A program made the position numbers and the translations under genes. The notes under the pieces were generated by a model, which saw only the letters and a list, made by a program, of their open reading frames with translations, searched no databases and was not told the DNA's origin. DNA of 64,000 nucleotides from a virus: positions 8,891 through 72,890 of IMG/VR virus record IMGVR_UViG_3300045258_000102, one strand, 5' to 3'. Shown one piece after another: positions 7,260-52,477 of this stretch; the stretch's first letter is position 1; each line of letters begins with the position of its first letter.

Positions 7260-7261
7260 GA

Positions 7262-9975: not shown

Positions 9976-9995
9976 CGTGTGCCTTTCAGCGGGCC

Positions 9996-10026: not shown

Positions 10027-10045
10027 GCAAAGTTCAACAATCGAC

Positions 10046-18684: not shown

Positions 18685-19152
18685 CTAATTGGCCACAGTT
18701 TCCAGTGGCGCGAAATCAGCCAGCGCTCTGTAGAACGCGGTGTCGCGATCGATGCCGCCCTTCAATAGTCTCCACTTGGCTTTGCGGAAGTCTTCGTAAC
18801 GTCCCTCGGCCTTGAGCCGTCGCGTTGCGTGCCACTTCGGCTCTCGTTCGAGATCGCCGGGCTTCCATTTGCAGGTCTTCTCCCAAGGCTTGAGCTTGAG
18901 CGGTGGCTCTTCGACGATGGGCTCAGGCTCGGGCTCCGGTTCAGCAGCTACCGCGGCAGCCGCCCGCTCGAGATTGTCCTTGTACTTCCGCACAGGTGTC
19001 GTGATTGCCCGCTCCCAATCCCAGCCTTGCTTGTTGACACGGTGCAGCACGCACGCCTGCGAAATGCCGTACTCCTTGCACCACTCGAAGAGCCGCATCT
19101 CGATGTCGTCGATTTTGACGAGGCGCGCGTTGACTGGGACTGCTGTCGGCAT
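18685..19152 (-). CDS. DNA-binding protein (NUMOD/HTH-like N-terminus) with RLxAEGRY domain
   Basis: LFEWCKEYGIS...RV.KQGWDWERAITTP motif; C-terminal domain paralogous to the 17763..18668 protein. Confidence 0.65.
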   Translation of the reverse strand: MPTAVPVNARLVKIDDIEMRLFEWCKEYGISQACVLHRVNKQGWDWERAITTPVRKYKDNLERAAAAVAAEPEPEPEPIVEEPPLKLKPWEKTCKWKPGDLEREPKWHATRRLKAEGRYEDFRKAKWRLLKGGIDRDTAFYRALADFAPLETVAN

Positions 19153-19166
19153 GGTCGCCTCGACGA

Positions 19167-19649
19167 CTAAGAAATCTCTTCGACGATACAGTTTCCCGAG
19201 CATGTGATCGCGTCGGCCGGCGCAGACACCGAGACGATGAGTGCCTCTCCACGGCCGAAGACCGGTCGATCCTCGCCAAGTGGTAAAAATAAATATCCAG
19301 CCTGCTCGTTCATCGCCTCTGCGCGGATTGTCGTCAGCGTGCCGCCCCCAGCCGTCGCCTGCGCCGTATTCATCGTCGTCGCGGTAAGAACGGATGGCGG
19401 ATCGATCGAGCTGTGCGGCGCGGGCGTCACAGCCGTGCCGCCCGATCCAGCCGTGTGACCAACGCCACGCTTGAGCAGCAAGTTGAGTCCCTCAGCCGCA
19501 GCGTCGCCCACGTCGGACGACTGCCCCAGCGTAATCTCGTGCACGATGAAGGAGTAACCTCCGACTGCCGGAGACTTGATTTCAAAGGCGTCGAACGCCG
19601 CCGCAGGACTGACAACGGCGGTGAACGGAATCGAGTATTTGCGTCCCAT
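19167..19649 (-). CDS. Virion structural protein
   Basis: A/G/T-rich beta protein; distant paralogue of 20923..21435. Confidence 0.65.
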   Translation of the reverse strand: MGRKYSIPFTAVVSPAAAFDAFEIKSPAVGGYSFIVHEITLGQSSDVGDAAAEGLNLLLKRGVGHTAGSGGTAVTPAPHSSIDPPSVLTATTMNTAQATAGGGTLTTIRAEAMNEQAGYLFLPLGEDRPVFGRGEALIVSVSAPADAITCSGNCIVEEIS

Positions 19650-21442: not shown

Positions 21443-23830
21443 TCAGTAAGTTGAGCCGGCCATCACCGCTCTCGATGCGCCGACGGGAACGTGAGTAATT
21501 GTGATTTGGTTTGGAGTCCAGCCATTCCAGAATGTCGTTTGACTGCCCTGCGTGTAGTCGTAGGCAATCTGCGCAGAAGTTAAGACGACGTTGTAGAGCT
21601 GTACGTCGCTCAGTCGCCCAGCAAAAAGAGTGTCGTTACCACTACGCGCTGCGACCGCCACGCCGAGCTTCGTAATGCCAGATGGCGTGATAGAAGTTGT
21701 TTCCGCGCTACCAGCCACGCCCTCGAAATACGCTGTGCGACTGGCCACTGCGCTCGTGAGTCCGGCTGCGTGATACCAAGTATTCGCCGCAAATGTTCCG
21801 GTGTCCGCATTGGCTGCGGTGCCGTTGCGGGTTGTCATTCGCGCCGGCTTGCCGCCGACACTTCCAGCCGCGAATAAACCGAAATAGTTATCTGTGACCG
21901 TGGGATCGGCGAGCGAAAGAATCGTTTGGAACGCGGCGGCGTTCGTAGAATTAAAATGCCCCATGATCGTCAACGGAACGGCGGTAATAATGCTCGCGCT
22001 GGCAATTCCATATTGGGTCGTGCCGTTGTAGCCATAGGTCGTATTGCTCCACGGGCCTGTGGATGCGGTTGTGCTAGGACTGCCCGTCATCGTGAGGTTG
22101 TTGACGCTGCGAGTGCGGTCGTTGCCGCCGCCCGTGAAGTAGTAGGCGCGGAGCTGATAGGGATAGGCGTTGAACTGGCCAAAGCTAGCCGTGGTGCTGT
22201 AGGCGGATGCGCCCGAGTTGCCTGCATAGACGCGCAGCGCCGGGCCGCCCGTCGTCAGCAGGTCGCCGGGGTACTTCACCTTGAGGACCGCATAGTTGCC
22301 CGCGTAATTGAATTCAACCGCGTCAAAGCAGCACTCTTGCCCGGCAACCGTGGAAACGCGAATGTCCTTGCCGTCCGAGGCGACTGCCGCCCACCAAGCG
22401 GTGTTCGTATTGTCGATGACAACCGTAAGTAGCGGAGCCCACAGATTCGCCGTTGGCGCATCTCCGGTCGCCTGGATGTAATTTGTCCAACTGCCAAAAC
22501 TACTAACGGTGGCAGCCGTGCCCTCAAGTGGCACAAACGATTGAAACTTTCCGTTGTGCGCCCACTGGTAGACATCGTGGTTCATCCCGATATCCGTCCC
22601 GGTGCCGTCAGCATAGCCCACGTCGGCGGTGATAAGATTCGTCAGCGTCCACGCGCTGCCCCAGGATGAACCGGCCGAGATGTAGGCATTGACGCCCGTG
22701 CCAACTGCTGTGCCACCATCATTAGCAAACACCACGCTGATCTGGTCGCTGCCGTCGATCACGCAATCTAGGTGGTCGGGGTATTTCCACTCGTAGGAAG
22801 CGGAGTCGGGGCTGATCGCGGCAATCGACCAGCTTGAGCCGTTCCAGGTGTAGTGATAGAGCCTGGAGTTGCCGCTGCCTGCGTCCTTGCGCCCGTGGAA
22901 AGCGTGAGGGTGGCCGGATGAATCGACACAAAAACAATCGTGCCCGCTGAGGTTTGTTGTCGTGCCGGAGCTGTCAACAATCTCACAGTTGGCTAAGGTG
23001 GCGGGAATGGTTTGCGCGCCGGTCGTTTTCGTGAACGTCGAGCCATTCCAGCGCATGACACTTACGTCATGCTGTTCAAAGACTCCGCCGCCCTGCTGCC
23101 GCCAGGTCCACATAAACCAGGCAAAGCCAGTTCCTGCACCATCAAAGTTGGATGTGAACTGCGGAGGGCCGTCGAGGTAGGCATTCTGCGTCGGGCTGCT
23201 CGCGGTGCCTTGGATGATGAGGCCACCACTGCCAGAGCCAGCCGCCGCCGCCCATGTCTGGCCGCTCTCGGTGTACTTGTAAAAATACTGATCGCCGTTG
23301 CCGCTCGCACCGTTGCGGAAGGTGAAGTAGAGCTTGCCGACCGGATCAACACAGAAGCGCGGATAGGTAACTAAGTCCTCATTCGTGCCCACCATCGAGA
23401 GTGTGCCGGTGAGCGTCCCCGAAAAGCTAGCCAGCGCCGTCGTGGTGCGCCGATACAACAGCGCGTTGGCGTGCATGTTGTAGCAGATGTGCAAATAGCC
23501 ATCGGCGTCGATGGCGAGCGCGACCGTGTTGTGATTGTCCACCGTGCGCGTGATGGAGGGCGAATTGGTCACGCCGTCATAGATGTAGAACGACCACGCG
23601 CCGCCGTTCTGTCGAATGGCCAACTCTAAAACTTCACTGGCCCCCGCCCACCACGCGGCTACCTGCCATTCCGTGCCGCTAATGTTGCGACTAACAAGCG
23701 GGGCCGCGCCGTTGCGGTTGTAGTTGGCATTCGTAGCTACGTCGCCGGAGGCGGTAATAGACAGCGCACGGACGGGGACTGGCGAACTGCCCGGCGTCCA
23801 ATCCATGATTCCAACTGGAAGTGCTGCCAT
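21443..23830 (-). CDS. BNR_4-type beta-propeller plus DUF2341-like plus LamG/ConA carbohydrate-binding protein
   Basis: DNHN..LAID.DGYLH..YNMH, TYPRF and FRNGASGNGD; DGKDIRV; NTWYHAAG...GRLSDVQLYNVVLT..QI. Confidence 0.75.
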   Translation of the reverse strand: MAALPVGIMDWTPGSSPVPVRALSITASGDVATNANYNRNGAAPLVSRNISGTEWQVAAWWAGASEVLELAIRQNGGAWSFYIYDGVTNSPSITRTVDNHNTVALAIDADGYLHICYNMHANALLYRRTTTALASFSGTLTGTLSMVGTNEDLVTYPRFCVDPVGKLYFTFRNGASGNGDQYFYKYTESGQTWAAAAGSGSGGLIIQGTASSPTQNAYLDGPPQFTSNFDGAGTGFAWFMWTWRQQGGGVFEQHDVSVMRWNGSTFTKTTGAQTIPATLANCEIVDSSGTTTNLSGHDCFCVDSSGHPHAFHGRKDAGSGNSRLYHYTWNGSSWSIAAISPDSASYEWKYPDHLDCVIDGSDQISVVFANDGGTAVGTGVNAYISAGSSWGSAWTLTNLITADVGYADGTGTDIGMNHDVYQWAHNGKFQSFVPLEGTAATVSSFGSWTNYIQATGDAPTANLWAPLLTVVIDNTNTAWWAAVASDGKDIRVSTVAGQECCFDAVEFNYAGNYAVLKVKYPGDLLTTGGPALRVYAGNSGASAYSTTASFGQFNAYPYQLRAYYFTGGGNDRTRSVNNLTMTGSPSTTASTGPWSNTTYGYNGTTQYGIASASIITAVPLTIMGHFNSTNAAAFQTILSLADPTVTDNYFGLFAAGSVGGKPARMTTRNGTAANADTGTFAANTWYHAAGLTSAVASRTAYFEGVAGSAETTSITPSGITKLGVAVAARSGNDTLFAGRLSDVQLYNVVLTSAQIAYDYTQGSQTTFWNGWTPNQITITHVPVGASRAVMAGSTY

Positions 23831-25067: not shown

Positions 25068-25364
25068 TCAGCACGTCTTGAAAACGCCATCCGTGAGGAA
25101 GCCGTGCCACTTGCATCCGCCGGTTCGCTGAATACTCGGCGTCAGCGTCGGCTTAACTTTGTCGCCGTTCCATTTCCACTTCGGGCTCGCTTGATTCGGG
25201 TCACCGGTGTCGAAGAAAATGCCACCAGTTGCACCGCAGCCGCACGGGCACATCTCGATCATGCCCCAGATCTTGCCGTCTTTGTCCGTGCTGAAGATGA
25301 AATCACCAGGGTTCTTCATGTCGTCCCACGACTTCACTTCGTTCGCTGGTACTTCGGTTGACAT
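25068..25364 (-). CDS. DUF6527-like Cys/His metal-binding protein
   Basis: CPCGCG...WKWNGD..KPTLTPSI...C.WHGFLTDG. Confidence 0.75.
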   Translation of the reverse strand: MSTEVPANEVKSWDDMKNPGDFIFSTDKDGKIWGMIEMCPCGCGATGGIFFDTGDPNQASPKWKWNGDKVKPTLTPSIQRTGGCKWHGFLTDGVFKTC

Positions 25365-26912: not shown

Positions 26913-27341
26913 TCAACGTCGTACTTCCCCGCTAGTAATAAACCCGTGCCAGCATTCCGGCTCGCCAACGGCTACGCTCGGCGCCAGTGTCAAGTCATTC
27001 AATCCGTTTCCGCTGACGGTCCATCGCGGGCGCGTTTTCCCGTCACGAGACTTGGGGCCAAAATCCGCTGGCGGAATTATTCCACATGGCGGATTAGCAA
27101 AGACGATCAGAACGCCATGCGGTCTCCCGAGGTTTAACGAGAGATCGAGCGGATAGCGTTCCTTGCCGTTTTCATCGAGCAGCCCGTACCCGCACGGACA
27201 CCAAAAAGCGACGCCCTGTGACTGCGAAAGGGAGTATGGACATCCGCTCTCGGAATGCGCGCGATAACTCCCATCGCTGCCGACTTCTGCAATGAAGTGG
27301 GCCTCGAACCAGACATCATCAAGTCTTGCCGGCAGGTTCAT
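26913..27341 (-). CDS. Second DUF6527-like protein
   Basis: FWCPCG...RWTVSG....LTLAPSV...CWHGFITSGEV. Confidence 0.7.
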   Translation of the reverse strand: MNLPARLDDVWFEAHFIAEVGSDGSYRAHSESGCPYSLSQSQGVAFWCPCGYGLLDENGKERYPLDLSLNLGRPHGVLIVFANPPCGIIPPADFGPKSRDGKTRPRWTVSGNGLNDLTLAPSVAVGEPECWHGFITSGEVRR

Positions 27342-30467: not shown

Positions 30468-30686
30468 ATGAAGCGTAAACCCCTCTCCACCACCCTCGTC
30501 GAGCTGCGCACCAAGCACGGCCTAACCCAAGCCGAGCTGGCCGAGCGAAGCGGGGTGACGAAAAGAACCATTGAGGACGTGGAGCAAGGGCGCAGCGAAG
30601 ACCCAAAGTGTGCCACGCTCGCAGCATTGGCCACGGCACTCGGAATCACGATGCAAGAATTGTGGTTCGGCACTCGCAGGAAGTAG
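30468..30686 (+). CDS. XRE-family HTH transcriptional regulator
   Basis: LRTKHGLTQAELAERSGVTKRTIEDVEQG...P...TL.ALA.ALG. Confidence 0.9.
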   Translation: MKRKPLSTTLVELRTKHGLTQAELAERSGVTKRTIEDVEQGRSEDPKCATLAALATALGITMQELWFGTRRK

Positions 30687-30769
30687 TGTCTTTTGCTAGA
30701 ATGCGAGCGGCCAGAGGTGTTCAGACCACTGGCCGCTCTAACCACCGCAACCCTAGCAAGAGGGCTCCA

Positions 30770-31390
30770 ATGGCTGAGGCCAATTCTATTGAGCGCGTGC
30801 CGGAACCGGAAGCCGAGGAATGGCGAGACATTCCAGGCTATGAAGGCTATCAAGCAAGCAGCATCGGCCGCGTGCGATCAAATTTCCTGCTAGGCGGCCA
30901 CGGACGGCGCGGAGCGTGGCGCGTCAGAAAGTTGTGTAAAATGTCGAGCGGCTACCCAAGCCTTTCCGTTGTCGTCGGTGGGACGCGATCGTCGCCGGCC
31001 GTCCATTGGTTGGTTGCGGCGGCTTTTTTGGGGCCTCGGCCGGCTGGATTTGAGATCAACCACATCGATGGCGTGAAGAGCAATAATCGCGTTGGAAACC
31101 TAGAGTACGTGACGGTTTCAGAAAACAAGAGGCACGCCATACGGCTCGGACTGATGCCGGGACCTCCACATTATTTCGGCGAGAAGCATCACAACGCGAA
31201 GCTCACGCAGATTCAAGCCGACGAAATACGACGCATCCATGCGACTGGCCGGCATTTGCAAAAAACGATTGCCAAGAAGTTCGGCGTGAGTCCCTACGTC
31301 GTCAGCGATATCGTGACCGGGAAGACCTACAAATCGATCGACGCCATTGAGCCCGAGGAAGCGAAGCAAGAAACCTTTGACGAGAACTAA
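30770..31390 (+). CDS. NUMOD4-HNH homing endonuclease
   Basis: EEWRDIPGYEGYQASSIGRVRS; VHWLVA; INHIDGVKSNN..NLEY. Confidence 0.9.
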   Translation: MAEANSIERVPEPEAEEWRDIPGYEGYQASSIGRVRSNFLLGGHGRRGAWRVRKLCKMSSGYPSLSVVVGGTRSSPAVHWLVAAAFLGPRPAGFEINHIDGVKSNNRVGNLEYVTVSENKRHAIRLGLMPGPPHYFGEKHHNAKLTQIQADEIRRIHATGRHLQKTIAKKFGVSPYVVSDIVTGKTYKSIDAIEPEEAKQETFDEN

Positions 31391-31391
31391 C

Positions 31392-32114
31392 GTGACCAAG
31401 GCAACGATCTACTGCCGCTACAGCGACAGGCCGGGAGCCGACACGTGCGAATCAAACGCCGTGCAGCTGGCGGCGTGCCAAGCCTATTGTCAGGCTCGCG
31501 ACTACGAAGTGCTGGCCGTCTTCGAGGACGCCGCGATCTCCGGGAAGAACGAAGATCGGCCGCTGCTCTGGCAAGCGGTAGAAACGCTGCGCAGGGGTTC
31601 GGTGCTCGTGGCGTACCGTGCCGATCGCCTAGCGAGGGGTGTGTATCTCTCCGAGGTGCTGCATCGCACAGTGGCCAAGAAGCGGGCCAAGATCGAAGTC
31701 TGCGAAGGAAGCAACAACGGAGACAGCGACCACGACGTGCTAGTAAGGCAGATTCTGGCGGCCGTGGCTGAGCTCGAACGCAAGGTGATTGCCGCAAGGA
31801 CGAAAGCCGCGATGAAGCATTACCAGAAAAATGGATTGCTCATGGGGAGAGACCCACACTATGGGACCAAGCGCGGACCAGACAAGATCACCAAAAAGGC
31901 CGACGGCACGACGCGCATCCAAAAGACCATCGTCGACAACCCCGCGGAGATGCTAGTAGTCGAGCGTGTGCTGGCCGCTCACGCCAGCGGACTCAATTCA
32001 CGCCAGATTGCTCGCGCGCTCACTGAGGACTGCGTAGAGCCCCGTGGTAGGCGCTGGAATCATTCGGCGATCGTCCGCATTGTGAAGCGGTACGGCTCAC
32101 CAGCCGACGGCTGA
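31392..32114 (+). CDS. Serine recombinase (resolvase/invertase catalytic domain plus short recombinase domain)
   Basis: IYCRYS, D.AISG...RP.L, YRADRLAR, AELER..I..RT. Confidence 0.9.
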   Translation: MTKATIYCRYSDRPGADTCESNAVQLAACQAYCQARDYEVLAVFEDAAISGKNEDRPLLWQAVETLRRGSVLVAYRADRLARGVYLSEVLHRTVAKKRAKIEVCEGSNNGDSDHDVLVRQILAAVAELERKVIAARTKAAMKHYQKNGLLMGRDPHYGTKRGPDKITKKADGTTRIQKTIVDNPAEMLVVERVLAAHASGLNSRQIARALTEDCVEPRGRRWNHSAIVRIVKRYGSPADG

Positions 32115-32414
32115 GGGGTATTCCATCGGGTCGGGCGCAGGTTTGTCGATGAACGACCAGAGGCGCTCACGATCGGCGAAATAAAGTGGCGTGCCGTCGG
32201 GGACATTGGAGACGCCGCCCGAAAGAATGGCGCAGCCCTCGTATGAATCAGGTGGCGGGACTGGAACGTCGCCGCGGAGCACCAGCGAGTGGACGTCGCG
32301 AGGATGCAGCTTCACCTTCGGCCGACGTCGGACCCTGATCTCATCCCGCACCAGCAGCCAGCAGAGGGCCAGTGCGAAGGCACCGGCGATCACGAGGTAG
32401 GTCACGGTTCGCAT
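32097..32414 (-). CDS. N-terminally anchored membrane protein
   Basis: One N-terminal TM helix followed by a basic stretch. Confidence 0.5.
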   Translation of the reverse strand: MRTVTYLVIAGAFALALCWLLVRDEIRVRRRPKVKLHPRDVHSLVLRGDVPVPPPDSYEGCAILSGGVSNVPDGTPLYFADRERLWSFIDKPAPDPMEYPSAVGW

Positions 32415-32427
32415 TTCAAAGACTCCC

Positions 32428-32952
32428 TTACGTTGGCCGGAGGTGCATCAACGCCGACATGACACCGATCGCGGCCAGCACGATCCCTGACATCACGCCG
32501 AGCACGGCGATAATCAGGCCACGGCTCTCGGTAACGCCGGTCGTCTTCCCCTCGCCGGTGGTGATTCGAGATTTGACGTCGTCGATCTTCTCGTTCAGGC
32601 CATCGAGCTGCTTGGTAACTGCCTTCTCGCTCTTGTCGATCGCCAGCGCGCTGCTCTTGTTTTGTTCGGCGTTGGCTTCCTTGACGGCTTGCAGTGCGTC
32701 CTCGACCGCCTTCTCGCTGTTGTCGAATCGCTTGTCCGTGCTGCGAAAGCGTTCGTCGAAAATCTTCTCGAGGTTCTGTATGGCAAGGTCAACTGAGGCG
32801 TGGCGCAACTCGATGGCCTTGTCCATGCCATCCAAGCGGGCGAAGACGACGTCGCGAAGCGCGCCAACCGCCACTTTCAACTGCTCGGTGGCCAGGACCG
32901 TGGGGTCCGGCTTGACCACCGCCGCCGCAGATTCCCGACCGTCGCCCTCCAT
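32428..32952 (-). CDS. Coiled-coil protein with C-terminal TM (holin/spanin-like)
   Basis: Heptad region, AIDKSEKA motif and C-terminal hydrophobic helix. Confidence 0.65.
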   Translation of the reverse strand: MEGDGRESAAAVVKPDPTVLATEQLKVAVGALRDVVFARLDGMDKAIELRHASVDLAIQNLEKIFDERFRSTDKRFDNSEKAVEDALQAVKEANAEQNKSSALAIDKSEKAVTKQLDGLNEKIDDVKSRITTGEGKTTGVTESRGLIIAVLGVMSGIVLAAIGVMSALMHLRPT

Positions 32953-32967
32953 CGGCCCACCCCCGGA

Positions 32968-33195
32968 TCAGTGAATGACGACGCCACCGCCGCGGTTCCA
33001 GCCGCCGAAGACTGGGAAGCCGCCGCCCTGTAGCAACCCCAGAAACACGAGCAGCAGAATGAGTCCGATGATCAACCAAACAATCTGCTTGATCGGATCA
33101 GGGATCGGAAGTTGCGCCATGATCAAACGCACCACCCAAATCACAATCAAAAGAACGACGCAGCCGATTAAAAACGCGATAAGCCACGAGATCAT
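32968..33195 (-). CDS. Small 2-TM membrane protein (holin candidate)
   Basis: Two TM helices joined by LPIPDPIK. Confidence 0.7.
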   Translation of the reverse strand: MISWLIAFLIGCVVLLIVIWVVRLIMAQLPIPDPIKQIVWLIIGLILLLVFLGLLQGGGFPVFGGWNRGGGVVIH

Positions 33196-33224
33196 TGTTC
33201 TACCCTCTGTTTGTTTGAGCGGTT

Positions 33225-33701
33225 CTATCTGGGCGCCGGCGCTTCAGGCGCGGCAGCTGGGAAAACAACCGGCTGCACCGGCTGAATCGCTTTGTTTTCG
33301 TTAATCTTCTCGAGCGTGGTCGCGATCGAGCGCAGCAGGTCGTTGTTCTCGGTCTTCTTCTCAGCCACGGCCTGCAGCTCGTGCGTGTTCTGATCGAGCG
33401 ACCGGACTAAGACATCGTGCTGCTGAGACACGTCGTGGAGCGCCAGTGTGTTCGCCTGGACGACGTCGGTCAACTTTTCTCGAACGAACCTCTCGCCTTC
33501 GGCCACGCGGGTATCCAGCTTGTTGAACTGCAGCGTGCCGACGTAGATGAAGAAGATGGCAATGCCTGCGAACAGACCCCAGCGCTTCGCAACTTCCAGT
33601 AGCATGGCGGCCTGATGCTCCTTCGTGCTGACGATGTCCGAGAGGATGCCGCCGCGACCAGATGTTTCCTCGGTAACATTTAGTTTTGATTTGGTCGTCA
33701 T
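33225..33701 (-). CDS. Single-TM plus coiled-coil protein (holin-like)
   Basis: RWGLFAGIAIFFIYVG followed by a coiled coil; ATGA overlap. Confidence 0.6.
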   Translation of the reverse strand: MTTKSKLNVTEETSGRGGILSDIVSTKEHQAAMLLEVAKRWGLFAGIAIFFIYVGTLQFNKLDTRVAEGERFVREKLTDVVQANTLALHDVSQQHDVLVRSLDQNTHELQAVAEKKTENNDLLRSIATTLEKINENKAIQPVQPVVFPAAAPEAPAPR

Positions 33702-34042
33702 TCGCCGTACCCTCCATCCTCCATCGGCTTCTGCGGCGGATGCTTGCTGGCGGTGATCGCCTTCGCGGATGCCAACTTGTCTTCCATGCCGGCGACAATT
33801 GCGCGAGCTTCCCGAACGCCTGGGCCCGGATGCCCGTCGCCACGCTCGAGCTGATCGCGGAGCTTCACCATGTCGTCTTGCAGATCGCTCAGCTTCTTGT
33901 CGACTCTGCTGCGCTGGTCGATGTACCAACGGGTCACGTGGTACGCGGTCGCGAACAGCCCGAGGACTGCGATGATCCACGCGGGCACAGAATCCACCCA
34001 AGTACCTAAGATCCGGAACGGGCTAGCCATTGTGCGGTTCAT
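33698..34042 (-). CDS. Single-TM plus coiled-coil protein
   Basis: PAWIIAVLGLFATAY followed by a coiled coil. Confidence 0.55.
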   Translation of the reverse strand: MNRTMASPFRILGTWVDSVPAWIIAVLGLFATAYHVTRWYIDQRSRVDKKLSDLQDDMVKLRDQLERGDGHPGPGVREARAIVAGMEDKLASAKAITASKHPPQKPMEDGGYGE

Positions 34043-34311
34043 ATCGTTCAAGTCGGCGATCAATGAGTCGCTCGAGATTCTCTACGGCGTGGCCTTCGCT
34101 GAAACCCTCGGCGCTAAGTGCGTCGAGGCTGAAATAATCGTTCTCCTGAGAGGCTGTCGCGACAACTGGCATGGCTACGTCGTGCTGCGGCCTGACTTCG
34201 ATGTTGTAGCCGCGATAAGGTATCCCCACGGTCCGCCCCCAACAGGCCGGCCGACGTGCTGAGCAGGCGATACGCAACACGTCGACCGGATTCGGTTGGC
34301 TCAGGGAGTGT

Positions 34312-34908
34312 CTACTGCTCGGTCACAGGGCCGGCCGAAATCTCGATGGTCGCCGCTGCTCCGGCCGTAACGTCCACCTCCTCGCTGCCGGCGAAGTCGA
34401 CACCGCCGATTGTGGCCTTGACGGAGACCATCGCGGCACCGATCGGGGCAACGGCCGAAACTTCGCAGTTCATGCCGTCAGCCGTGACGGCCAGCGCGAT
34501 CATCTCGGTGTTGTCGGCAAACCATTCCGGCGGTGCATCCGGCGTGGCTGTCGTGGGTTGGCCCTTGGCGTCCTTGAACGCGAGGGACAGGGTAACTTTT
34601 TGCGAGTCGGTGATTGTGATGACGCCCATGATTTCTCCTTGAAATGAGGATTGGTACTGAGGTGTTAAAGTGACGGGTGATTTCAATTGACTGATCGGTC
34701 CAGCGCGGAAGTAAATGCCGAGCTCGTCCGTGTTGCCGCAAGACTCTTCGATCTTGGCAATGACCGCGGCTTGGTTCTTGCCGGCCTGTTCGCCAAGATC
34801 GGTGATTCCTTGAGCCGTCTTAGTCGACGACGCGTTGACCGCCTTCGTCAGCTGGTTGACCGCCTTCAGGATGTCCGAGTTGGAAACAAGCATGTTGAAG
34901 AGTCCCAT
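34312..34908 (-). CDS. Coiled-coil plus Ig-like beta-sandwich protein (possible internal start at MGVITITDSQ)
   Basis: TDSQKVTLSLAFKDAKG.P...P.W motif; AAGGAG precedes the internal ATG. Confidence 0.6.
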   Translation of the reverse strand: MGLFNMLVSNSDILKAVNQLTKAVNASSTKTAQGITDLGEQAGKNQAAVIAKIEESCGNTDELGIYFRAGPISQLKSPVTLTPQYQSSFQGEIMGVITITDSQKVTLSLAFKDAKGQPTTATPDAPPEWFADNTEMIALAVTADGMNCEVSAVAPIGAAMVSVKATIGGVDFAGSEEVDVTAGAAATIEISAGPVTEQ

Positions 34909-34930
34909 AGTTACTGAAAGTTTTGAGGGA

Positions 34931-35746
34931 TTACTTGCCGGCCGGTCGCTTATCGAGGCCCTTTTCCTTGAGCAGCGCCGCCACGTCGTCTACGTGGAGA
35001 CAATCGCACATGCAGGCTCCTGTCCGTGCCTCTTGGATCGGTGCGATGACGCCGTTGCAGTAGTCATTGCCAGGTGCTGCGCTGTGAAGCACGCCGGCTG
35101 CTGTGATTTGTCCGTCGTTGCCAAGTTGCACGATCTTGTCGCCGTTCTTAGCTTCACGGCCGTTTCGGTAGTGCATGTTCTTGTTCCTTGTGGTTGTCGT
35201 AAGAAGGCCGCCGCGTCCGCTCGTGACAGTCGCGACGGCCGGGGGAGGAGAGTTAAAGTTCAGTCTTGCAAATTCTCCATGAAGCTCCTTTGCTGCCAGG
35301 TCGTAGGCAGCGCCTGCCTCTTCGGCGGAGTCGAAATATCCAATGCACCTACGCGTGCCATTGGCACCGATTCGGGCCGCCCATTTTTTCTGATACTTGT
35401 GGTAGTCGACTCCCCTAAATCCAGACGTGTTTTTGTTGCAAAGTCTCGAGTTTTGCCGATTCTCTGAGTAGGTTGCGCGGCGTAGATTGTTGAGCCTGTT
35501 ATCCAGGCCAGATCCGTTTTTGTGGTCGGTGTTCTTGCTCGGTTCAATACCAGCCAGCTTGAGAATCTCCCTGTGCATCCTAACGGTCCCTCGTCGACCG
35601 TTTTGCGTCCTGAGGTTTCGGGTTGCGTAGTACACGTACCCATTCCGCTGGCGAGTCGCGTACCATTTGTATTTATTTAATTCCTCGTAAAATTCGTCAT
35701 CGACGATGGCCTGCTTGCCCTGTGTCAATTCGATATACTTTGTCAC
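34931..35746 (-). CDS. HNH-AP2 endonuclease reading in frame into a small MHYRNGREAKNGD protein
   Basis: IELTQGKQAIVDD, MHREI, DHKNGSGLDNR..NLR, AP2 (SGFRGV...W.A.I...IGYF..AEEA), then MHYRNG...CMCDCLHVDD. Confidence 0.85.
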   Translation of the reverse strand: MTKYIELTQGKQAIVDDEFYEELNKYKWYATRQRNGYVYYATRNLRTQNGRRGTVRMHREILKLAGIEPSKNTDHKNGSGLDNRLNNLRRATYSENRQNSRLCNKNTSGFRGVDYHKYQKKWAARIGANGTRRCIGYFDSAEEAGAAYDLAAKELHGEFARLNFNSPPPAVATVTSGRGGLLTTTTRNKNMHYRNGREAKNGDKIVQLGNDGQITAAGVLHSAAPGNDYCNGVIAPIQEARTGACMCDCLHVDDVAALLKEKGLDKRPAGK

Positions 35747-35819
35747 GTTGAGTTCTCCTTTTTAGAACTTGACCACGGCCCCGGACGTTGCCACGTCGCG
35801 GGGCCATTTTCTTTCATCC

Positions 35820-36290
35820 TTATTGTCGCGAGGCGGCAACTGAGCCTGGATTCGGCTCGAGATCAGGGGCCAGTCGCCGCACGGTAACAATCGCCGGGTG
35901 ACCGACATGCCTAGCCACTGGATCTGACGGCCGGTCGTTCTGGCTCGACTTCGGAGCCTCGCCAGCTGCGCATCCGCACGAAGGCTCGCTTTCAATCCCG
36001 CATGAGGGCTCAACTCCGCAGCTCGCTTCGCCACAACTAGCCTCGGACGACGCTGGATGCAGTCGAGCGCGAATCCTGGCGAGGATGCCTAAGCCGGCGC
36101 CACCGCGTGCCCCGCGGAAGCCGACCTGCCAATTTGGGTTGTACATCGGGCCACTAATGCCGCCGTGATCGACGCCGCAGCTGCCGCTCGAGCATTGGCC
36201 GCCCGAGCAGGCGATCGCAGGCGTTGTCACGAAGCAGCACACGGCGAGGAGCGCCACGGCCGCAAATAAGATGCACGAAAGTCTACACAT
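35820..36290 (-). CDS. Exported Cys-rich protein with (E)xSCG repeats
   Basis: Signal peptide; CSGGQCSSGSCG and EASCGEASCGVEPSCGIESEPSCGC; AAAGGAG SD. Confidence 0.65.
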   Translation of the reverse strand: MCRLSCILFAAVALLAVCCFVTTPAIACSGGQCSSGSCGVDHGGISGPMYNPNWQVGFRGARGGAGLGILARIRARLHPASSEASCGEASCGVEPSCGIESEPSCGCAAGEAPKSSQNDRPSDPVARHVGHPAIVTVRRLAPDLEPNPGSVAASRQ

Positions 36291-36305
36291 GAGAATCTCC
36301 TTTGT

Positions 36306-37133
36306 TCACAAGGACTTGAGGGTTGCGAGAAAATCGTTTGGATTGGCCGGTGGGCGAAAGCCTGGAACGCTGGATTTGCCCGGCTCAAAGACGAAGGCGA
36401 CCGGGATCCGGCTCGCGCCAAACTGCCTGGCCGTCTGCGGGTACTGGTCGACATCGATCAGACAGAAAACCAGATTGTCGGCGATGTACTGCTTGAGCGT
36501 CGGATCGGCCAGCGTCTGGTTCTCGATTGGCTTGCACCAGCTGCACCACGTGGCCGTGAAGAGTAGCAGCACCTTACGCCCACTCATCTTCGCGGCAGCC
36601 GTGGCTGAAGCTAGGTCGTCGTACCGCTCGCGCAGCTGCGGCTCTGGTGGCTTCTCAGCGGCCTTGGTTTCGTAGCTGGCGAGCTGGGCTTTGAGTTCGA
36701 CGTTCTCTTGTTTGACGATCTTGTAGGCCGCCGACAGCGAATTATCCATCAGTTCGAGCTGATTGTACTGAGCTTGGAGCTCGGCCAGCTGTTTCTTAAT
36801 GTCGGCGTTTTGCTGCTTTAAGTCATCCATTTCCTTGGTATTGAAATCTATAGCCCCCAGCCGCAACCGCCACTCGGTACGGGCTTGCGTCGGTGCTCCC
36901 GCCGTCTCGGTCTGCTTGTTTCCCAGTGGGCCAACGTAGTCCCCGGGTCCCCAGCCGCCGTCCGGACTCCATGCGTGTGTTGGCGCGTAAGTATGCTCGC
37001 CGGCCGGCGCTGCTGGTTGGTCGACGACTTGGTCACCAACGAGCGGCACGGGAGCCAGCGGCAGCGGGAACAGCAGGTGCGCGGCGACGAATGCGATGCA
37101 GGCAGCCAGGGCGGTGTTGAGCGCGAGTTTCAT
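36306..37133 (-). CDS. Exported/membrane-anchored coiled-coil plus thioredoxin-family protein
   Basis: N-terminal hydrophobic signal; FTATWCSWCK active site; IDVD...A..FG...IP cis-Pro motif. Confidence 0.85.
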   Translation of the reverse strand: MKLALNTALAACIAFVAAHLLFPLPLAPVPLVGDQVVDQPAAPAGEHTYAPTHAWSPDGGWGPGDYVGPLGNKQTETAGAPTQARTEWRLRLGAIDFNTKEMDDLKQQNADIKKQLAELQAQYNQLELMDNSLSAAYKIVKQENVELKAQLASYETKAAEKPPEPQLRERYDDLASATAAAKMSGRKVLLLFTATWCSWCKPIENQTLADPTLKQYIADNLVFCLIDVDQYPQTARQFGASRIPVAFVFEPGKSSVPGFRPPANPNDFLATLKSL

Positions 37134-37642
37134 GCTGCAAACCTCCGCTTGCGATTGGCAATCCGCCAGATCGTGGTTTTGGCGACGCCATATTTCTCAG
37201 CGAGGTCTTTCCGAAGCTCGCCGGCTGCAAGGGCTGCGCGGACTTCGTCGACCTGAGCATCCGTAAGTTTCGCCGTTGGGTGCGACTCGCCACGTGGCAT
37301 TACACCGAGCCGCCGGTTGTCGGCGTAGTTTTCTGCCGGCGTCCCCCACTTCAGGTTCTCGAGACGACAATCTGTTTTCTTGCCGTTCAGGTGGCGGCAT
37401 TGCATTCCTTCTGGACAAGGCCCGGCGAACGACGTCAGCACCAAGCGATGTACGCGGAAGGTTTTGTATTTGCACGGCTCCGTCGAGAGATTGACGCTAA
37501 GGTAGCCTTTCTCGTTCACAGCTGGCTTCTTGATCTTCCAGGGGATCGGACGACGCCGCGTTGAGATGCAGGTCCAGACGCTGCCGTCGTTGCCTACGCG
37601 GTAACCGGGGTGGCCAGGGATGTCGCGGTATTCAACGTCCAT
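37130..37642 (-). CDS. NUMOD4-HNH homing endonuclease
   Basis: YRDIPGHPGYRVGNDG; VHRLVL; CRHLNG...RLENLKWGT. Confidence 0.9.
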   Translation of the reverse strand: MDVEYRDIPGHPGYRVGNDGSVWTCISTRRRPIPWKIKKPAVNEKGYLSVNLSTEPCKYKTFRVHRLVLTSFAGPCPEGMQCRHLNGKKTDCRLENLKWGTPAENYADNRRLGVMPRGESHPTAKLTDAQVDEVRAALAAGELRKDLAEKYGVAKTTIWRIANRKRRFAA

Positions 37643-37650
37643 CTGCTTAT

Positions 37651-38439
37651 TTACGCAACGCTATTTTCAATGGCAGCGACCCTGCCGGCCTCGTCGAACT
37701 TGGAATACGCGTCGCTGAGAATGAAGTATCCGTTCACACCGTAGCTGCTTCCCCAACTATTGCGCCCCTTATAGACCCAGCGCTTCTTTGCGTCGTCCCA
37801 CGCCAATCCGACAAGGATAATTTCATGTTGCCAACGCGGAATTCCGACGGTGACCGCTTGGTTCTGCACCAGCGACGATCTGATCAGCTGGTGGTCATCC
37901 GGCTCGAATTCTTCGTAGGTCGTGATCCGGTGAAGGCTGGCGTTTTGGACGATTTCTGGTGTAGCAACGCCTTTGAATTGCATCGGCGGCCACATCGCCT
38001 CGACGCATGTGCCATTCTCGGCGCACCACTTCACGTCTTGGATACCGGAGCCGCCTTCGTTTCTTCCGTGCTTGATTTGAGAGCATGGGTAGAACGACGA
38101 GAGAATCTTTACTGGCGCGCCAGTTTCGACAATAGCTAGTTCCATGCCGTGCACCGGCGCATGACCCCAGCAATATGAACTCGATTTTTGGTCCTTGGGC
38201 GGCAGGCCGGCGCGGTCGGCGATGTCGCACATCCACGACTTATTCGTCGTCTTATCCTTGGCTGCCTCATCGATTTCCTTGTCAGTCAGCCGCTTGATCG
38301 TCGGCGCCTGCGCACACTTCAATCCATTGAGCGGGAACGCTTGGTAGTCGCGCTCGACGTATCCTGTGCCGTGATCCCTGAGCTCGGCCGGCCGGGCGTA
38401 GGCTTCGTCAACGACTGGCAGTCCGTCGATAGTCTTCAT
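37651..38439 (-). CDS. Papain-like (C1) cysteine peptidase
   Basis: DQKSSSYCW (Gln/Cys), WQHEI (His), RNSWG (Asn); ATGA overlap. Confidence 0.85.
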   Translation of the reverse strand: MKTIDGLPVVDEAYARPAELRDHGTGYVERDYQAFPLNGLKCAQAPTIKRLTDKEIDEAAKDKTTNKSWMCDIADRAGLPPKDQKSSSYCWGHAPVHGMELAIVETGAPVKILSSFYPCSQIKHGRNEGGSGIQDVKWCAENGTCVEAMWPPMQFKGVATPEIVQNASLHRITTYEEFEPDDHQLIRSSLVQNQAVTVGIPRWQHEIILVGLAWDDAKKRWVYKGRNSWGSSYGVNGYFILSDAYSKFDEAGRVAAIENSVA

Positions 38440-38834
38440 CTTGCGTACTTTCGAATAAGTGCCTCGGCCGATTTCTCGTCCGCCGGCAACGCCGCTGAAC
38501 CGGTGATCTTTTTTGCCGTGCCGACGGTCAGCCAATCCGGGGACTTGCGGCCAGGGTCATCCATCAGGGCTTTGAATTCTGGTTGGTCGTCGTTGAATGT
38601 GGCCACCGAACTAACGATTCGATAGCGCCCCTTGCCGATCTCCGCGTCGCATACGTCGAGGAACGCCTGGTTGTCCAGAAACTTCGGCTTGTCGTCCACG
38701 TCGTAGGTTACGACGGCGCTCGGCTTGCCGAAGATTGTTCCGTTCGGAGGGGTGGCGCCGTGCGGCTGCAGGATGTGCACCAGCCCCACAAAGATGACCG
38801 CGAGAGCGATTTGAACGCGCAAGAGCTTCAGCAT
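38436..38834 (-). CDS. N-terminally anchored membrane protein coupled to the peptidase
   Basis: N-terminal TM helix and small soluble domain. Confidence 0.65.
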   Translation of the reverse strand: MLKLLRVQIALAVIFVGLVHILQPHGATPPNGTIFGKPSAVVTYDVDDKPKFLDNQAFLDVCDAEIGKGRYRIVSSVATFNDDQPEFKALMDDPGRKSPDWLTVGTAKKITGSAALPADEKSAEALIRKYAR

Positions 38835-38932
38835 GTGGCACCTATTGTTGCACCGTGTCGAAGTGCTGGATGATCTTCACGAGCACTACGATGATCAGGA
38901 TGCTTGTGACGAATCCGAACATGATATTTGCC

Positions 38933-39112
38933 TCAGCAACAGAAATAGATCACGGCTCCGATGACGCTGACCACGATCAGCACAACGGAGCCGATCAAGT
39001 ACCACTTGGCGCCGCGGCCCGGGTCGTCGGCCGGATTGTGGACAAAGCGACCTGTCGCCGGGTCGTGGAGCGGAGCGCTATGTTCGGGGTGTGGGTGTTG
39101 TTCGGCGGTCAT
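38933..39112 (-). CDS. Small protein with C-terminal TM
   Basis: WYLIGSVVLIVVSVIGAVIYFCC. Confidence 0.55.
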   Translation of the reverse strand: MTAEQHPHPEHSAPLHDPATGRFVHNPADDPGRGAKWYLIGSVVLIVVSVIGAVIYFCC

Positions 39113-39116
39113 GGCT

Positions 39117-39914
39117 TTACCCCGGGTAAATGGCGACTTTGATCGGCGAATAGAGCAGTGACTCGAACATGTCGGCCGGCGTGGTGAGGTATGGCGATCG
39201 ACTCGGCACGGGATCGCAACCGCCGGCAACATCCCATTGCTTCTGGGCGTCGGAGCAGTACGGCGGGTACTTGGCAAAGTAGGCGTCGACGTCCTTGCGC
39301 TTGCGGAGCCAGATGAAATACGCCAGTTCTCGGAAGCCGACAATATGCGTGAGGGCCTCGAAGCCGACGGCCAGCCGACCATAGGGCGTCCCGACCAACG
39401 CCAGCGCGGCGTCGACAGCTTTCCGCGTGTCGAACTCGGGGAACTTGGCGTGGTTGATCGGCGCCACGTAGTACTTTCCCGGGTTGTCGCCGACCTCGTC
39501 CTCGAAGTTCTTGTTCCGGCCCCCGTGGAATTCGACGACATCAAGCAAGCGGATCTCGCCGCTGCGTCTCCGCTGCAGCATTCCCGCGTGCGACACGCCG
39601 GAAAATGTGCCAATTCGTATTGCGTACGAATGGAAGGCGGTGCCGGCGTACCACATTCCCCAGGCTGAAGTAATCGACGGCGCGATGTCGCTATAGCGCG
39701 CGGCGTAATGGGTTGGCGCGTCTGGGTGCCAATTTGGCCCGACGCGAAACTTGTCGGCCAGCACGCCGTAGTCCTCGAACAGTCGCTCGTGTGAGAACAC
39801 GCTCTCACTCGACGCTTCGAGCGGCAGCCGTGGCAAACTCGCGAAGTGGTCGGTGCCGATCATGCTGTTGGCGGCGATCCAAAGCCTGGCGAAGAGGAGT
39901 GCGCGGGAGTTCAT
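39117..39914 (-). CDS. Permuted papain-like NlpC/P60 (YiiX/YaeF-like) amidase/peptidase
   Basis: His motif SHAGM precedes the Cys motif YCSD; VGTPY and TPAD motifs. Confidence 0.75.
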   Translation of the reverse strand: MNSRALLFARLWIAANSMIGTDHFASLPRLPLEASSESVFSHERLFEDYGVLADKFRVGPNWHPDAPTHYAARYSDIAPSITSAWGMWYAGTAFHSYAIRIGTFSGVSHAGMLQRRRSGEIRLLDVVEFHGGRNKNFEDEVGDNPGKYYVAPINHAKFPEFDTRKAVDAALALVGTPYGRLAVGFEALTHIVGFRELAYFIWLRKRKDVDAYFAKYPPYCSDAQKQWDVAGGCDPVPSRSPYLTTPADMFESLLYSPIKVAIYPG

Positions 39915-40417
39915 TACACCCCGACTGGTCGAGGCGCCGCCGAACTTGGCGTCGCTGGTGCCGGAATAAGCGGCGAGTTGATCGGTTGCTGGGCGAGGCC
40001 CGTCACGCCGACGCTTTGGCCGATCTTCGCCTGAATGACCTTGATCGCGGCCGCGACGTCAGGGTCTGCGCCGCCAAGCTGGCGTTGCATGACCATCGTC
40101 ACGTCCATCCAGAAGATACGCTTGACGTCGTCCAGCGTAATTCCCAGCTGCTGGGCGACTTCGCTGCTGTTGAGCTTGTAAAGCAGGGCGTCGACGTCGG
40201 CGATCCCGGTCACGGCTGGCGGAGTGGTGCCATCGGACGCCGTTGCCGACTTCGACGCGACAGCGTCGGTTGCCGGCACCGCGGCCTTATTCTTCTTGTA
40301 AGCCATGAAGCCCAGGAAAGCGGCAGCAGCAACAATCGCCCAGGTGACGGGGTTCGTCAGGATCGCGCTGTCGAGCACCAATTCGGCGGGGCTGGGGACG
40401 AGAATCAAGGAAGGCAT
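39914..40417 (-). CDS. Membrane protein (N-terminal TM)
   Basis: WAIVAAAAFLGFMAYKKNK. Confidence 0.65.
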   Translation of the reverse strand: MPSLILVPSPAELVLDSAILTNPVTWAIVAAAAFLGFMAYKKNKAAVPATDAVASKSATASDGTTPPAVTGIADVDALLYKLNSSEVAQQLGITLDDVKRIFWMDVTMVMQRQLGGADPDVAAAIKVIQAKIGQSVGVTGLAQQPINSPLIPAPATPSSAAPRPVGV

Positions 40418-51620: not shown

Positions 51621-52477
51621 CGCTGCTTCCTTCGCGGGTGTCGTTCGCGTTCTTCCTTTGCCATCGCCGACCGCACCGGGTCGTTGTGGCTGGCCACGAT
51701 GCCGTCATCCACTCCGTCGAAGAAGGCGCCGCATTTTCGGCACTTGAAGATGTCGCCGACCGGTTGCGCATTTTTGCGACCGCACTGCGGGCATTGGGGT
51801 GGTTTGTTCTTACTCGTCACTTCGCATCCCTCCTTCCACGCAAGCGTCGAGCGCCGCCATAAAGTCAGCGTCGTAGTCAATGTTGCGCTTCCAGTAGTCC
51901 ATCTTTACGAGACGCTTTGCGCTAATTCGAATCCCGCGCAGATCGTTGATGTCGGCCAAGTAGCGCACGGACTGATGCGGGTGGCCCTGCGCCATGGCCC
52001 AGAGCCTAGCCTCGTAAACACTCGCCGCCAGCACGTACCAATACCCATCCGGTCCTGGCGACCATTCATCGCGTTCGCGATCTCTTCGAGTCTTCACCGC
52101 CTCCACAATCCGCTCCGCCGGCACCAGCGCCACAGTAAGCTGCTCCGGCGTCGGGTAGTCCTTGCAGAGCTCGCCGTCGAGCTCCATGTGCTGCAGGTCA
52201 GTCGCCAGCAGGATCGCGGCTAGGTCGTATTTATCGAGGTACATATAGTCTTTCACGCGTTGATGAACGATGCTTCGTCGTATGCCATCGAGGCGCCGAT
52301 CACCTTCCGCTGGTCGTTCTCGGCTTGCATCCCGTAGATGCGCGCTAGCTTGTCGACGGATCGCTCAAACTGGTTGATCGCCTCGGTGAAGTTCATGCCA
52401 GGAAACTGCTCCATCGCGCTCTTGAGCGAATAGGCAGCACGTTCAAATCTCTCCGAGAGAAGGTTGACGTTGTTCAC
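51617..52477 (-). CDS. Three small genes (51617-51820 zinc ribbon, 51810-52256, 52253-52477)
   Basis: Overlapping starts and stops; CPQCG/CRKCG. Confidence 0.55.

Follow-up and report, generated by a model that had tools for sequence, protein, structure and literature searches.

A conserved phage gene module of a papain-family peptidase and exported partners with genomic hallmarks of lysis function

We analyzed a 64,000-nucleotide stretch of viral DNA, hereafter "the window," which comprises bases 8891 to 72890 of the 72,890-bp virus record IMGVR_UViG_3300045258_000102, and focused on a block of leftward genes at window positions 32097 to 40417. Central to this block are three core genes, which encode a signal-less papain-family (C1) cysteine peptidase, a small exported partner that we call X, and an exported CxxC thioredoxin. 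These genes form a conserved module with genomic hallmarks of lysis function. We judge it somewhat better than an even bet that the block is the lysis region of this phage and that X, the peptidase, and the thioredoxin replace a muralytic endolysin. An earlier note on this DNA had proposed a lysis system built from a holin, a protease, and a disulfide reductase; conserved linkage, a lysis-type context, and the absence of recognizable endolysins speak for the protease-thioredoxin part of that proposal, whereas no holin family could be recognized in the window.

A conserved module of peptidase, partner, and thioredoxin

The peptidase gene lies at 37651 to 38439 on the minus strand and encodes 262 amino acids (aa); its start was placed at Met33 of a longer open reading frame (ORF) because homologues begin there. 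In agreement with the earlier note, which had described a signal-less papain C1 peptidase, the protein exceeds the Pfam cut-off for Peptidase_C1 (32.4 bits versus 20.7), matches cathepsins in the PDB, and has no N-terminal hydrophobic segment. The family profile aligns with cathepsin K (E = 5.6e-16) from about profile position 82, leaving an N-terminal extension of about 80 residues where a propeptide would sit. One match covers part of the procathepsin S propeptide, and no I29 family match was obtained with Pfam.

The peptidase is a member of a large family carried by phages. A word-based search returned 18 relatives at 41 to 55% identity, all 257 to 272 aa long, and a profile search of 1.84 billion representatives returned 175 at E ≤ 1e-30 and 710 at E ≤ 1e-10. 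Among 50,697 deposited phage records, only one contained a distant match. Single-sequence scans of viral contigs with C1, and with a 265-aa protein encoded elsewhere in the block, found nothing, and an alignment was needed. Alignment-based scans gave the 93 loci on which our comparisons are based, namely, 2 plus 80 viral loci (of 132 confirmed), 10 metagenome loci, and the window. Across these loci C1 identity ranges from 23 to 55%. Gln84, Cys90, and His205 are kept in all 91 locus-encoded homologues and Asn227 in 90 of them; the papain Gln, Cys, His, Asn, and Trp residues are invariant or nearly so in the family alignments, and the catalytic columns are invariant in the alignment designated A1. 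An N-terminal hydrophobic segment was found in none of 87 C1 proteins. Among 13 longer forms of the peptidase, no wall-binding domain was found, and six carry intein or LAGLIDADG domains. In all five long forms inspected (P0051, P0106, P0109, P0125, and P0131), the intein sits exactly between a conserved Tyr and the catalytic Cys, and in intein-bearing metagenomic C1 homologues the catalytic Cys is the +1 residue of the C-extein. Such placement is understandable, because a conserved and important active site is expected to attract inteins.

The gene immediately upstream of the peptidase, at 38436 to 38834 (minus strand), encodes X, a protein of 132 aa with a signal or anchor segment and a conserved C-terminal domain of about 100 aa. 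A hidden Markov model (HMM) of this domain has a match no more than 600 nucleotides (nt) upstream of C1, on the same strand, at 87 of the 93 loci; the exceptions are five loci at a contig edge and one without X. Within 961 kb searched, 87 of 89 HMM hits fall at this position upstream of C1. About half of the loci match by construction, because the HMM was built from them; the other matches were found independently. The spacing of X and C1 is mostly -3 to 0 nt, with stop/start overlaps typical, and in the window the TGA of X overlaps the ATG of C1 as ATGA. Most X proteins begin with a hydrophobic segment (67 of 82), and two loci encode X-C1 fusions behind such a segment. The pair is also present in a 595-kb uncultured phage. 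X has no relative in Pfam or PHROGs, and its profile gave chance-level hits only against PDB sequences. The nearest neighbors of an ESM Atlas model of residues 35 to 132 are viral X-like clusters, followed by seven thioredoxin clusters (TM scores of 0.45 to 0.50 by query and 0.48 to 0.57 by row); the X alignment contains no conserved CxxC. A twin-arginine motif occurs in only 2 of 87 X proteins, and "hitch-hiker" export of C1 with X through the twin-arginine (Tat) pathway was dropped as a general mechanism. The obligate partner, like the two HNH genes and the GH10-like ORF described in the last section, goes beyond what the earlier note had described.

These counts bear on the suggestion that the cassette is a chance juxtaposition of unrelated accessory genes with no joint function. 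The block does contain two homing endonucleases and several orphan genes, and its C92-like and Cys-rich SCG proteins (see below) are not conserved parts, as this suggestion would have it. Yet the order X-C1-thioredoxin recurs across the 93 loci, including a chromosomal prophage and a huge phage, and the hits to the X domain are concentrated at one position. Chance is already contradicted for the three core genes and survives for the accessory genes only; as an account of the cassette as a whole we find it scarcely credible.

The third core gene (36306 to 37133, minus strand) encodes a thioredoxin of 275 aa. The earlier note had called it an exported coiled-coil thioredoxin with a WCSWC motif, and its architecture bears this out: an N-terminal hydrophobic segment is followed by a coiled-coil-like middle and a Thioredoxin_7 domain (E = 1.4e-13; 51.2 bits versus a cut-off of 27), which also matches the Pfam family Thioredoxin (E = 2.9e-9; 37.3 bits versus 23.5). 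An HMM seeded from six module proteins found an exported CxxC thioredoxin in 33 of the 93 loci. It abuts the end of C1 in 29 loci; elsewhere it follows a 513-nt HNH gene (the window), lies 631 nt downstream (L058), or stands between X and C1 (L049 and L051). The window protein matches both the module HMM and the thioredoxin part of a trypsin-thioredoxin fusion in L058. The motif is CGPC, the classical reducing motif, in 23 of the 33 loci. Twenty-six of the 33 proteins exceed the hydropathy threshold for a signal, and the remainder have shorter signal-like starts. Pfam confirms the thioredoxin in L085, L082, L029, and L034 and is marginal in L010.

The genes around the X-C1 pair are those of a lysis-type neighborhood. 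Holins recognized by Pfam occur beside the pair in at least five loci. In L002 and L003, only a gene or two separates C1 from a Phage_holin_4_1 gene, and in L077 such a gene is located some 2.4 kb downstream; Phage_holin_10 genes lie near C1 in the L036 family and L075. Among small same-strand ORFs, 126 of 304 located no more than 2 kb from the pair encode a predicted transmembrane segment, compared with 13 of 173 at 3 kb or more (odds ratio of 8.7, p = 1e-16; the near set includes some thioredoxins). At least one small transmembrane ORF is found within 2 kb in 64 of 92 loci, and a gpA-type large terminase begins no more than 4 kb downstream in 21 of 92. The co-occurrence of peptidase, thioredoxin, and holin-like genes that the earlier note had raised is seen across loci, with X-C1 as the constant pair, the exported thioredoxin in about a third of cases, and holins or small membrane proteins around them.

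Holin-endolysin-spanin cassettes of the lambda S/R/Rz/Rz1 type are the familiar lysis arrangement of tailed phages. Like them, the block places a signal-less enzyme, predicted here to degrade the wall, among small membrane proteins and between replication and packaging genes, and related loci have Pfam-recognized holins and a terminase close by. Unlike them, its enzyme is a C1 protease rather than a glycosidase, an amidase, or a peptidoglycan peptidase of known type. The exported protein X is its obligate partner, a thioredoxin, also exported, often joins the two, and neither a spanin nor a holin family is recognizable in the window.

The same evidence allows two other roles for the module to be weighed. 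In one, C1 acts within the cell or the virus particle, for example in maturation or host takeover, and has no relation to its neighbors. The missing signal peptide, the propeptide-like N-terminal extension, and the position of C1 after capsid-type genes in L002 and L003 would all suit such a protease. However, C1 is translationally coupled to the exported X in 87 of 93 loci and stands behind a signal peptide in the two fusions, which places it with envelope proteins; membrane proteins are strongly enriched around it, and no prohead protease is known to belong to family C1. We regard an intracellular role as very improbable. In the other, the module remodels the envelope or excludes competitors (by destroying receptors, blocking superinfection, or aiding release) beside an unrecognized endolysin. 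Two of the three core proteins are exported, the window block adjoins a repressor and serine-recombinase island of the kind that commonly hosts accessory genes, and the pair comes after head-type genes in L002 and L003. Most of the genome is family-less, so an unrecognized endolysin is possible. Against such a role stand the near-universal architecture beside holins and a terminase and the fact that inteins and homing endonucleases target the module as they do essential genes. Moreover, because the protease has no export signal in 87 of 87 proteins, it would need a membrane lesion to meet its exported partners. Remodeling or exclusion is thus an improbable reading, less so than an intracellular role.

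Endolysin searches, hosts, and the target of the peptidase

The earlier note had recognized no endolysin in the window, and this held when the full 72,890-bp record was scanned. Six-frame searches of the whole genome found no Phage_lysozyme, Amidase_2, Amidase_3, SLT, NLPC_P60, or Peptidase_C92 domain, and a scan of 120 ORFs (21 plus 63 plus 36) against all of Pfam, which together took in the gene set, the gaps, and the part outside the window, found no peptidoglycan-hydrolase family. The result extends to related phages. Viral records with C1 and a length of 30 kb or more numbered 41, among them 8 with a completeness of at least 90%, and none contained Amidase_2, Phage_lysozyme, SLT, Amidase_3, GH19, Peptidase_M15_4, Peptidase_M23, NLPC_P60, Peptidase_C92, or GH108 (E ≤ 0.001; 0.01 for C92). 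GH25, CHAP, and Glucosaminidase were absent from five complete records searched for them. Full Pfam searches of 150 plus 96 representatives of neighboring genes yielded no peptidoglycan hydrolase besides a sub-threshold C92 hit in L030. As a positive control, thioredoxin was recovered in four of five viral records.

A scan of a genome collection with alignment A1 found nothing, and one with a tight sub-alignment, A4, found five loci. Three of these belong to Planctomycetota metagenome-assembled genomes (MAGs), where the contigs concerned measure 32.7, 24.0, and 2.2 kb; the remaining two come from contigs (1.1 and 3.2 kb in length) binned with other phyla. Among 401 sampled Planctomycetota genomes, there were two strong C1 matches, one of which is the center of the search itself. 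The second lies at 2.76 Mb of a 3.02-Mb Planctomycetota contig, where genes for X (139 aa), C1 (275 aa), and a trypsin-thioredoxin protein (377 aa) occur with a lambda-type portal nearby; this locus is an integrated prophage. At least some of the phages that bear the module infect Planctomycetota. YTV domains were present in all four Planctomycetota genomes with the C1 family and in none of 14 control genomes. As a separate observation, a C1-family gene (E = 2e-88) in a Planctomycetota MAG (L107, positions 9977 to 10753) lies among host-type genes for DUF1501, FGE-sulfatase, and aldolase proteins and may be a domesticated or stranded copy.

What the peptidase would cut in such hosts depends on how their wall is viewed. 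The earlier note had given as established the long-standing description of Planctomycete envelopes as rich in Cys/Pro, disulfide-linked protein. The premise of a wall of protein without peptidoglycan is outdated: Planctomycete cells and sacculi are reported to be susceptible to lysozyme and to contain peptidoglycan (PMC4432640). In Planctopirus limnophila, most peptidoglycan synthesis genes are reported to be non-essential, and a Cys-rich protein with a YTV domain and a presumed influence on wall rigidity is reported to be essential (PMC10632474). Cys-rich YTV proteins have also been reported in wall preparations of three species (PMC12673574). Several modules include further proteases. Trypsin_2-thioredoxin fusions follow C1 in L058, L070, and L105, L010 encodes a trypsin-like protein ahead of the pair, and in L063 the X-C1 fusion is followed by a gene for a caspase-like protein. 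We favor a protein target because of the kinship of C1 with protein-cleaving enzymes, because these extra proteases join the module in some loci, and because of the host biology. In its widest form, this view would hold that lysis by the tailed phages of Planctomycetia involves no muralytic endolysin. A holin-released papain-type protease, an exported thioredoxin, and a thioredoxin-fold adaptor, sometimes with trypsin- or caspase-like proteases, would dismantle a disulfide-bonded, cysteine-rich protein wall of YTV type, which would bear the mechanical load of these bacteria in place of peptidoglycan. We offer this generalization tentatively and think it doubtful as a whole.

The peptides of peptidoglycan are the alternative substrate, because peptidoglycan is present and lysozyme-sensitive and because nothing else recognized in these genomes could cut it. 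C1 would then be a true endolysin that cleaves stem peptides or cross-links, in the manner of CHAP and NlpC/P60 enzymes, which belong to its clan, with the thioredoxin doing nothing beyond keeping its thiol reduced in an oxidizing periplasm and with no protein layer targeted. The susceptibility of Planctomycetes to lysozyme, the lack of another recognizable peptidoglycan hydrolase in the genome and in the 41 related records, and the position beside holins and terminase, which is where an endolysin is found, are all consistent with this possibility. Papain-fold lysins are, moreover, well known (PMC10318531), and thiol lysins need a reductant (PMC4592898). On the other side, the family groups with C1 cathepsins and not with the CHAP, NlpC, and Amidase_5 groups that hold phage lysins in the part of the classification drawn on here (PMC10318531), and none of the 13 long forms has a wall-binding domain. 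The trypsin- and caspase-like proteases in several loci are hard to explain for a peptidoglycan target, and peptidoglycan synthesis genes are reported to be largely dispensable in one model Planctomycete (PMC10632474). We consider a true endolysin unlikely, though the likeliest of the competing readings.

Proposed mechanism and comparison with known systems

Lysis by the module might proceed as follows. X and the thioredoxin would be exported early by way of their signal peptides and wait in the periplasm, while the peptidase would build up in the cytoplasm, where its N-terminal extension of 80 residues may keep it inactive. One of the small membrane proteins would then open a holin-type lesion in the membrane and so give the peptidase access to the envelope. 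There, the thioredoxin would keep or make the catalytic thiol reduced and may also open disulfides of cysteine-rich wall proteins, and X would serve as a non-catalytic binding partner with a thioredoxin fold. Finally, the peptidase would cut peptide bonds that hold the wall together, most plausibly those of Planctomycete wall protein and alternatively those of peptidoglycan stem peptides.

A number of points weigh against this reading. Peptidoglycan must still be breached, because cells and sacculi are reported to be lysozyme-sensitive (PMC4432640). Since these phages are mostly dark matter, a muralytic enzyme could hide unrecognized among the family-less ORFs. The negative results for GH19 and GH108 say little because the controls for these two families were silent, and a lack of endolysin families may extend to phages without C1, as all scanned records bear it. 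No holin family was matched in the window with Pfam or PHROGs. Several of the 93 loci are near-identical copies, so that the counts overstate independence. The thioredoxin, present in 33 of 93 loci, is not obligatory, and in the periplasm it would need an electron source, none of which is encoded here. The C1 homologue of L107 has no X hit upstream. A redox-inactive thioredoxin-like fold for X is a lead only, given that its Atlas scores are borderline, and hhalign comparison of X with the module thioredoxins gave a probability of 0.1. Scans of 29 to 45 kb for promoters and terminators returned the same counts as shuffled sequences. When the genes are expressed, in which compartments the proteins act, what X and the thioredoxin do, and what the peptidase cuts are inferred. 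As for the host, the window terminase has only three weak partial matches (33 to 34% identity) in the 401 Planctomycetota genomes, which is of no help in assigning one; infection of Planctomycetota by the window phage itself is a lead that rests on the Atlas neighbors of one protein.

Known systems share some features of the module. SAR endolysins, such as Lyz of phage P1, are activated by disulfide isomerization, a redox switch internal to the lysozyme. Thiol-disulfide chemistry in the periplasm, as proposed here, would be a point in common, as is the tethering of C1 behind a signal or anchor through fusion to X in two loci; unlike in SAR endolysins, a separate exported thioredoxin and a separate anchor protein accompany the protease. 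Cwp84 of Clostridioides difficile is a secreted C1A protease that processes the surface-layer protein during S-layer maturation. It is likewise a papain-family enzyme, and it acts on a protein layer at the cell surface; however, Cwp84 is a secreted host enzyme, whereas the enzyme here is phage-encoded, signal-less, and linked to a thioredoxin.

The pseudomurein endoisopeptidases PeiW and PeiP of methanogen phages are likewise phage-encoded cysteine peptidases and are reported to lyse hosts with a wall that lysozyme cannot open (PMC4592898). These peptidases need a reducing agent in air (PMC4592898), a requirement that provides a rationale for a co-exported thioredoxin. They are transglutaminase-like, have N-terminal wall-binding repeats, and act on pseudomurein (PMC4592898); unlike them, the family described here is of papain C1 type, has no binding domain, and has an exported thioredoxin of its own. 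A 2023 classification of papain-like enzymes places phage lysins under NlpC/P60, CHAP, Amidase_5, and PeiW/PeiP and, in the part drawn on here, not under C1 (PMC10318531). The CHAP, NlpC/P60, and Amidase_5 endolysins are proven phage lysins of the same Cys-His catalytic fold class (PMC10318531), but the present family belongs to Pfam Peptidase_C1, its nearest structures are cathepsins, and NLPC_P60 and CHAP searches were negative. No account of a phage lysin of C1 type, or of a lysis module that combines a protease with a thioredoxin, emerged from a literature search judged by titles and by part of one superfamily review.

If the proposed role is correct, the module would be the second case, after the pseudomurein peptidases of methanogen phages, of a lysis enzyme matched to an unusual wall, and the first such case in which a protease is paired with its own exported redox helper. 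It would also offer an independent, genetic view on the long-disputed question of what holds the Planctomycete cell together, in that the enzymes that a phage needs for bursting a cell point to its load-bearing layer. The module is easy to test, with three small genes, clear active-site residues, and culturable hosts such as Planctopirus, and it could provide a reagent for lysing bacteria that are difficult to break open.

Accessory genes and genome context

The 265-aa protein is encoded at 39117 to 39914 (minus strand), upstream of X, and is a candidate permuted papain-like (Peptidase_C92/YiiX-like) hydrolase. The earlier note had identified it as a permuted NlpC/P60 enzyme. In favor of this identification, the protein has an ESM Atlas feature score of 0.92 against Planctomycetota clusters and against one with the name "permuted papain-like amidase," and its structural neighbors in the Atlas are Peptidase_C92-bearing clusters (TM scores of 0.62 to 0.66 by query); most of the Peptidase_C92-type clusters near it are from Planctomycetota. 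A homologue is encoded upstream of X in L029 (33% identity over 132 aa), and a C92-like relative encoded close to C1 in L030 scores 24.7 bits, short of the cut-off of 27. In a three-sequence alignment of the window, L029, and L030 proteins, His109 is invariant upstream of an invariant Tyr219-Cys220, that is, with the His before the Cys. In disagreement, there was no Pfam hit at E = 0.01 and no PDB sequence match, and six-frame searches with Peptidase_C92 (PF05708) and NLPC_P60 (PF00877) at E = 10 returned nothing for this protein. A k-mer protein search retrieved only the protein itself among 869 candidates, and a single-sequence AlphaFold model was useless (pLDDT of 32). A permuted NlpC/P60 or C92-like enzyme thus stands as a reasonable lead.

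Downstream of the thioredoxin, at 35820 to 36290 (minus strand), lies the gene of the 156-aa "SCG" protein, which is exported, rich in Cys, and cationic in its middle stretch; as the earlier note had described, such a protein is present, and it has no family match. Small exported Cys-rich proteins with C-x-x-G-x-C loops and cationic tails are encoded no more than 3.5 kb from C1 in eight other loci. Loci with SCG-like Cys-rich proteins include L015/L017, L018, L030, L031, L034, L077, and L007, and the cationic stretches look amphipathic. Proteins of this type might act on the outer membrane. We also considered whether the coiled-coil thioredoxin and the SCG protein could be spanin-like. Gene order, the N-terminal anchor, and the coiled-coil-like region fit, but the SCG sequence PAIAC is not a clean lipobox, and no spanin PHROG was hit in the block. 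The earlier note had counted the C92-like enzyme and the SCG protein among the parts of the cassette; in related loci they are occasional accessories and do not belong to the core. Together with the coiled-coil membrane proteins described below, they may supply an additional peptidase, a peptide that acts on the outer membrane, or components of a spanin-like kind.

The block has been invaded by two homing-endonuclease genes, and one of these sits exactly between the genes for the peptidase and the thioredoxin. This gene (37130 to 37642, minus strand, 513 nt) encodes NUMOD4, HNH_3, and helix-turn-helix (HTH) domains (Pfam HNH_3, E = 4.6e-13; PHROG 59, E = 1.8e-36); its start is 8 nt past the C1 stop, and its TGA overlaps the thioredoxin ATG as ATGA. 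The other is an HNH-AP2 ORF at 34931 to 35746 on the same strand (Pfam AP2, E = 1.1e-8; PHROG 99, E = 5.5e-38). Its last 81 codons (about 34931 to 35176) are 75% identical to free-standing small ORFs in L015 to L017 and are probably a separate small conserved gene in the same frame. Four clear HNH homing-endonuclease genes occur in the genome, at 30608 to 31390 (plus strand), 34931 to 35746, 37130 to 37642, and 59163 to 59672 (the latter three on the minus strand), and a fifth, weaker candidate is probably located at 18685 to 19203 (minus strand).

The remaining genes of the block, all on the minus strand, are mostly small and membrane-associated. The first gene (39914 to 40417) encodes a 167-aa protein with one N-proximal transmembrane segment and no Pfam or PHROG family. 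The end of the block consists of five small membrane proteins, preceded by two family-less genes that encode proteins of 198 aa (34312 to 34908) and 85 aa (34023 to 34280), neither with a match in Pfam or PHROGs. Of the five, the first (33698 to 34063) is a 121-aa protein of no known family with one transmembrane segment and then a coiled-coil-like tail. The second (33225 to 33701), with a transmembrane segment and a coiled-coil-like ectodomain, is about 158 aa long if, as is probable from the sequence, it starts at the internal Met101 of the ORF at 33225 to 34001. A 75-aa protein with two transmembrane segments follows (32968 to 33195); it matches no holin family, and its size and topology suggest that it is the best holin candidate in the window. 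Next is a 174-aa coiled-coil protein with a C-terminal transmembrane segment (32428 to 32952), which has a weak match to phrog_937, "hemolysin" (E = 3.3e-4), and a weak resemblance to XhlA-type proteins. The last gene of the leftward block (32097 to 32414) encodes a 105-aa protein with an N-terminal transmembrane segment and no family. Hydropathy gives six membrane proteins and three signal-bearing proteins in the block, a revision of the earlier count of about eight small membrane proteins. Pfam recognizes Peptidase_C1, Thioredoxin_7/Thioredoxin, and the two HNH enzymes in the block, and PHROG matches are otherwise weak.

The record begins and ends with the same 127 bases, and in IMG/VR it is classed among those with direct terminal repeats; on these grounds, the genome is probably complete, and it is probably of temperate type. 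Nearly all genes run leftward, and no tRNA genes were found. The block lies between recombination and replication genes at 42 to 64 kb (RecE/YqaJ, RecT, RusA, a HerA/FtsK-like ATPase, and a methyltransferase) and a rightward island at 30.2 to 32.1 kb that encodes an HTH regulator, an HNH endonuclease, and a serine recombinase. To the left of this island are small genes, a BNR_4/Laminin_G protein, the large terminase (15940 to 17766), an SU10-type adaptor, and large structural ORFs that run on into the 8.9 kb beyond the window. Two DUF6527 genes (25068 to 25364 and 26913 to 27341, minus strand) are among the small genes that separate the recombinase island from the virion genes.

Several of the genes outside the block have features of their own. 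The BNR_4 plus Laminin_G_3 protein (795 aa; 21443 to 23830, minus strand) is probably a receptor-binding or depolymerase tail protein, and Laminin_G_3 proteins are also encoded a few genes downstream of the C1 module in other loci (L010 to L014, L023, L034, and L054). Outside the window, at 917 to 7540 of the record (L001, minus strand), is a 2208-aa ORF with an HELGH motif and no Pfam family, adjoined by a Gln-rich ORF of 493 aa; both are probably internal or tail virion proteins. The sole glycosidase-like ORF seen, at 52474 to 54249 (minus strand, 591 aa), is GH10-like and lies in the replication region. It apparently comprises two genes in one frame, the first with a signal peptide, a GH10-like domain, and a PEP-CTERM-like end (VPEP, a hydrophobic stretch, and basic residues) and the second with its own signal peptide and a CAP domain.

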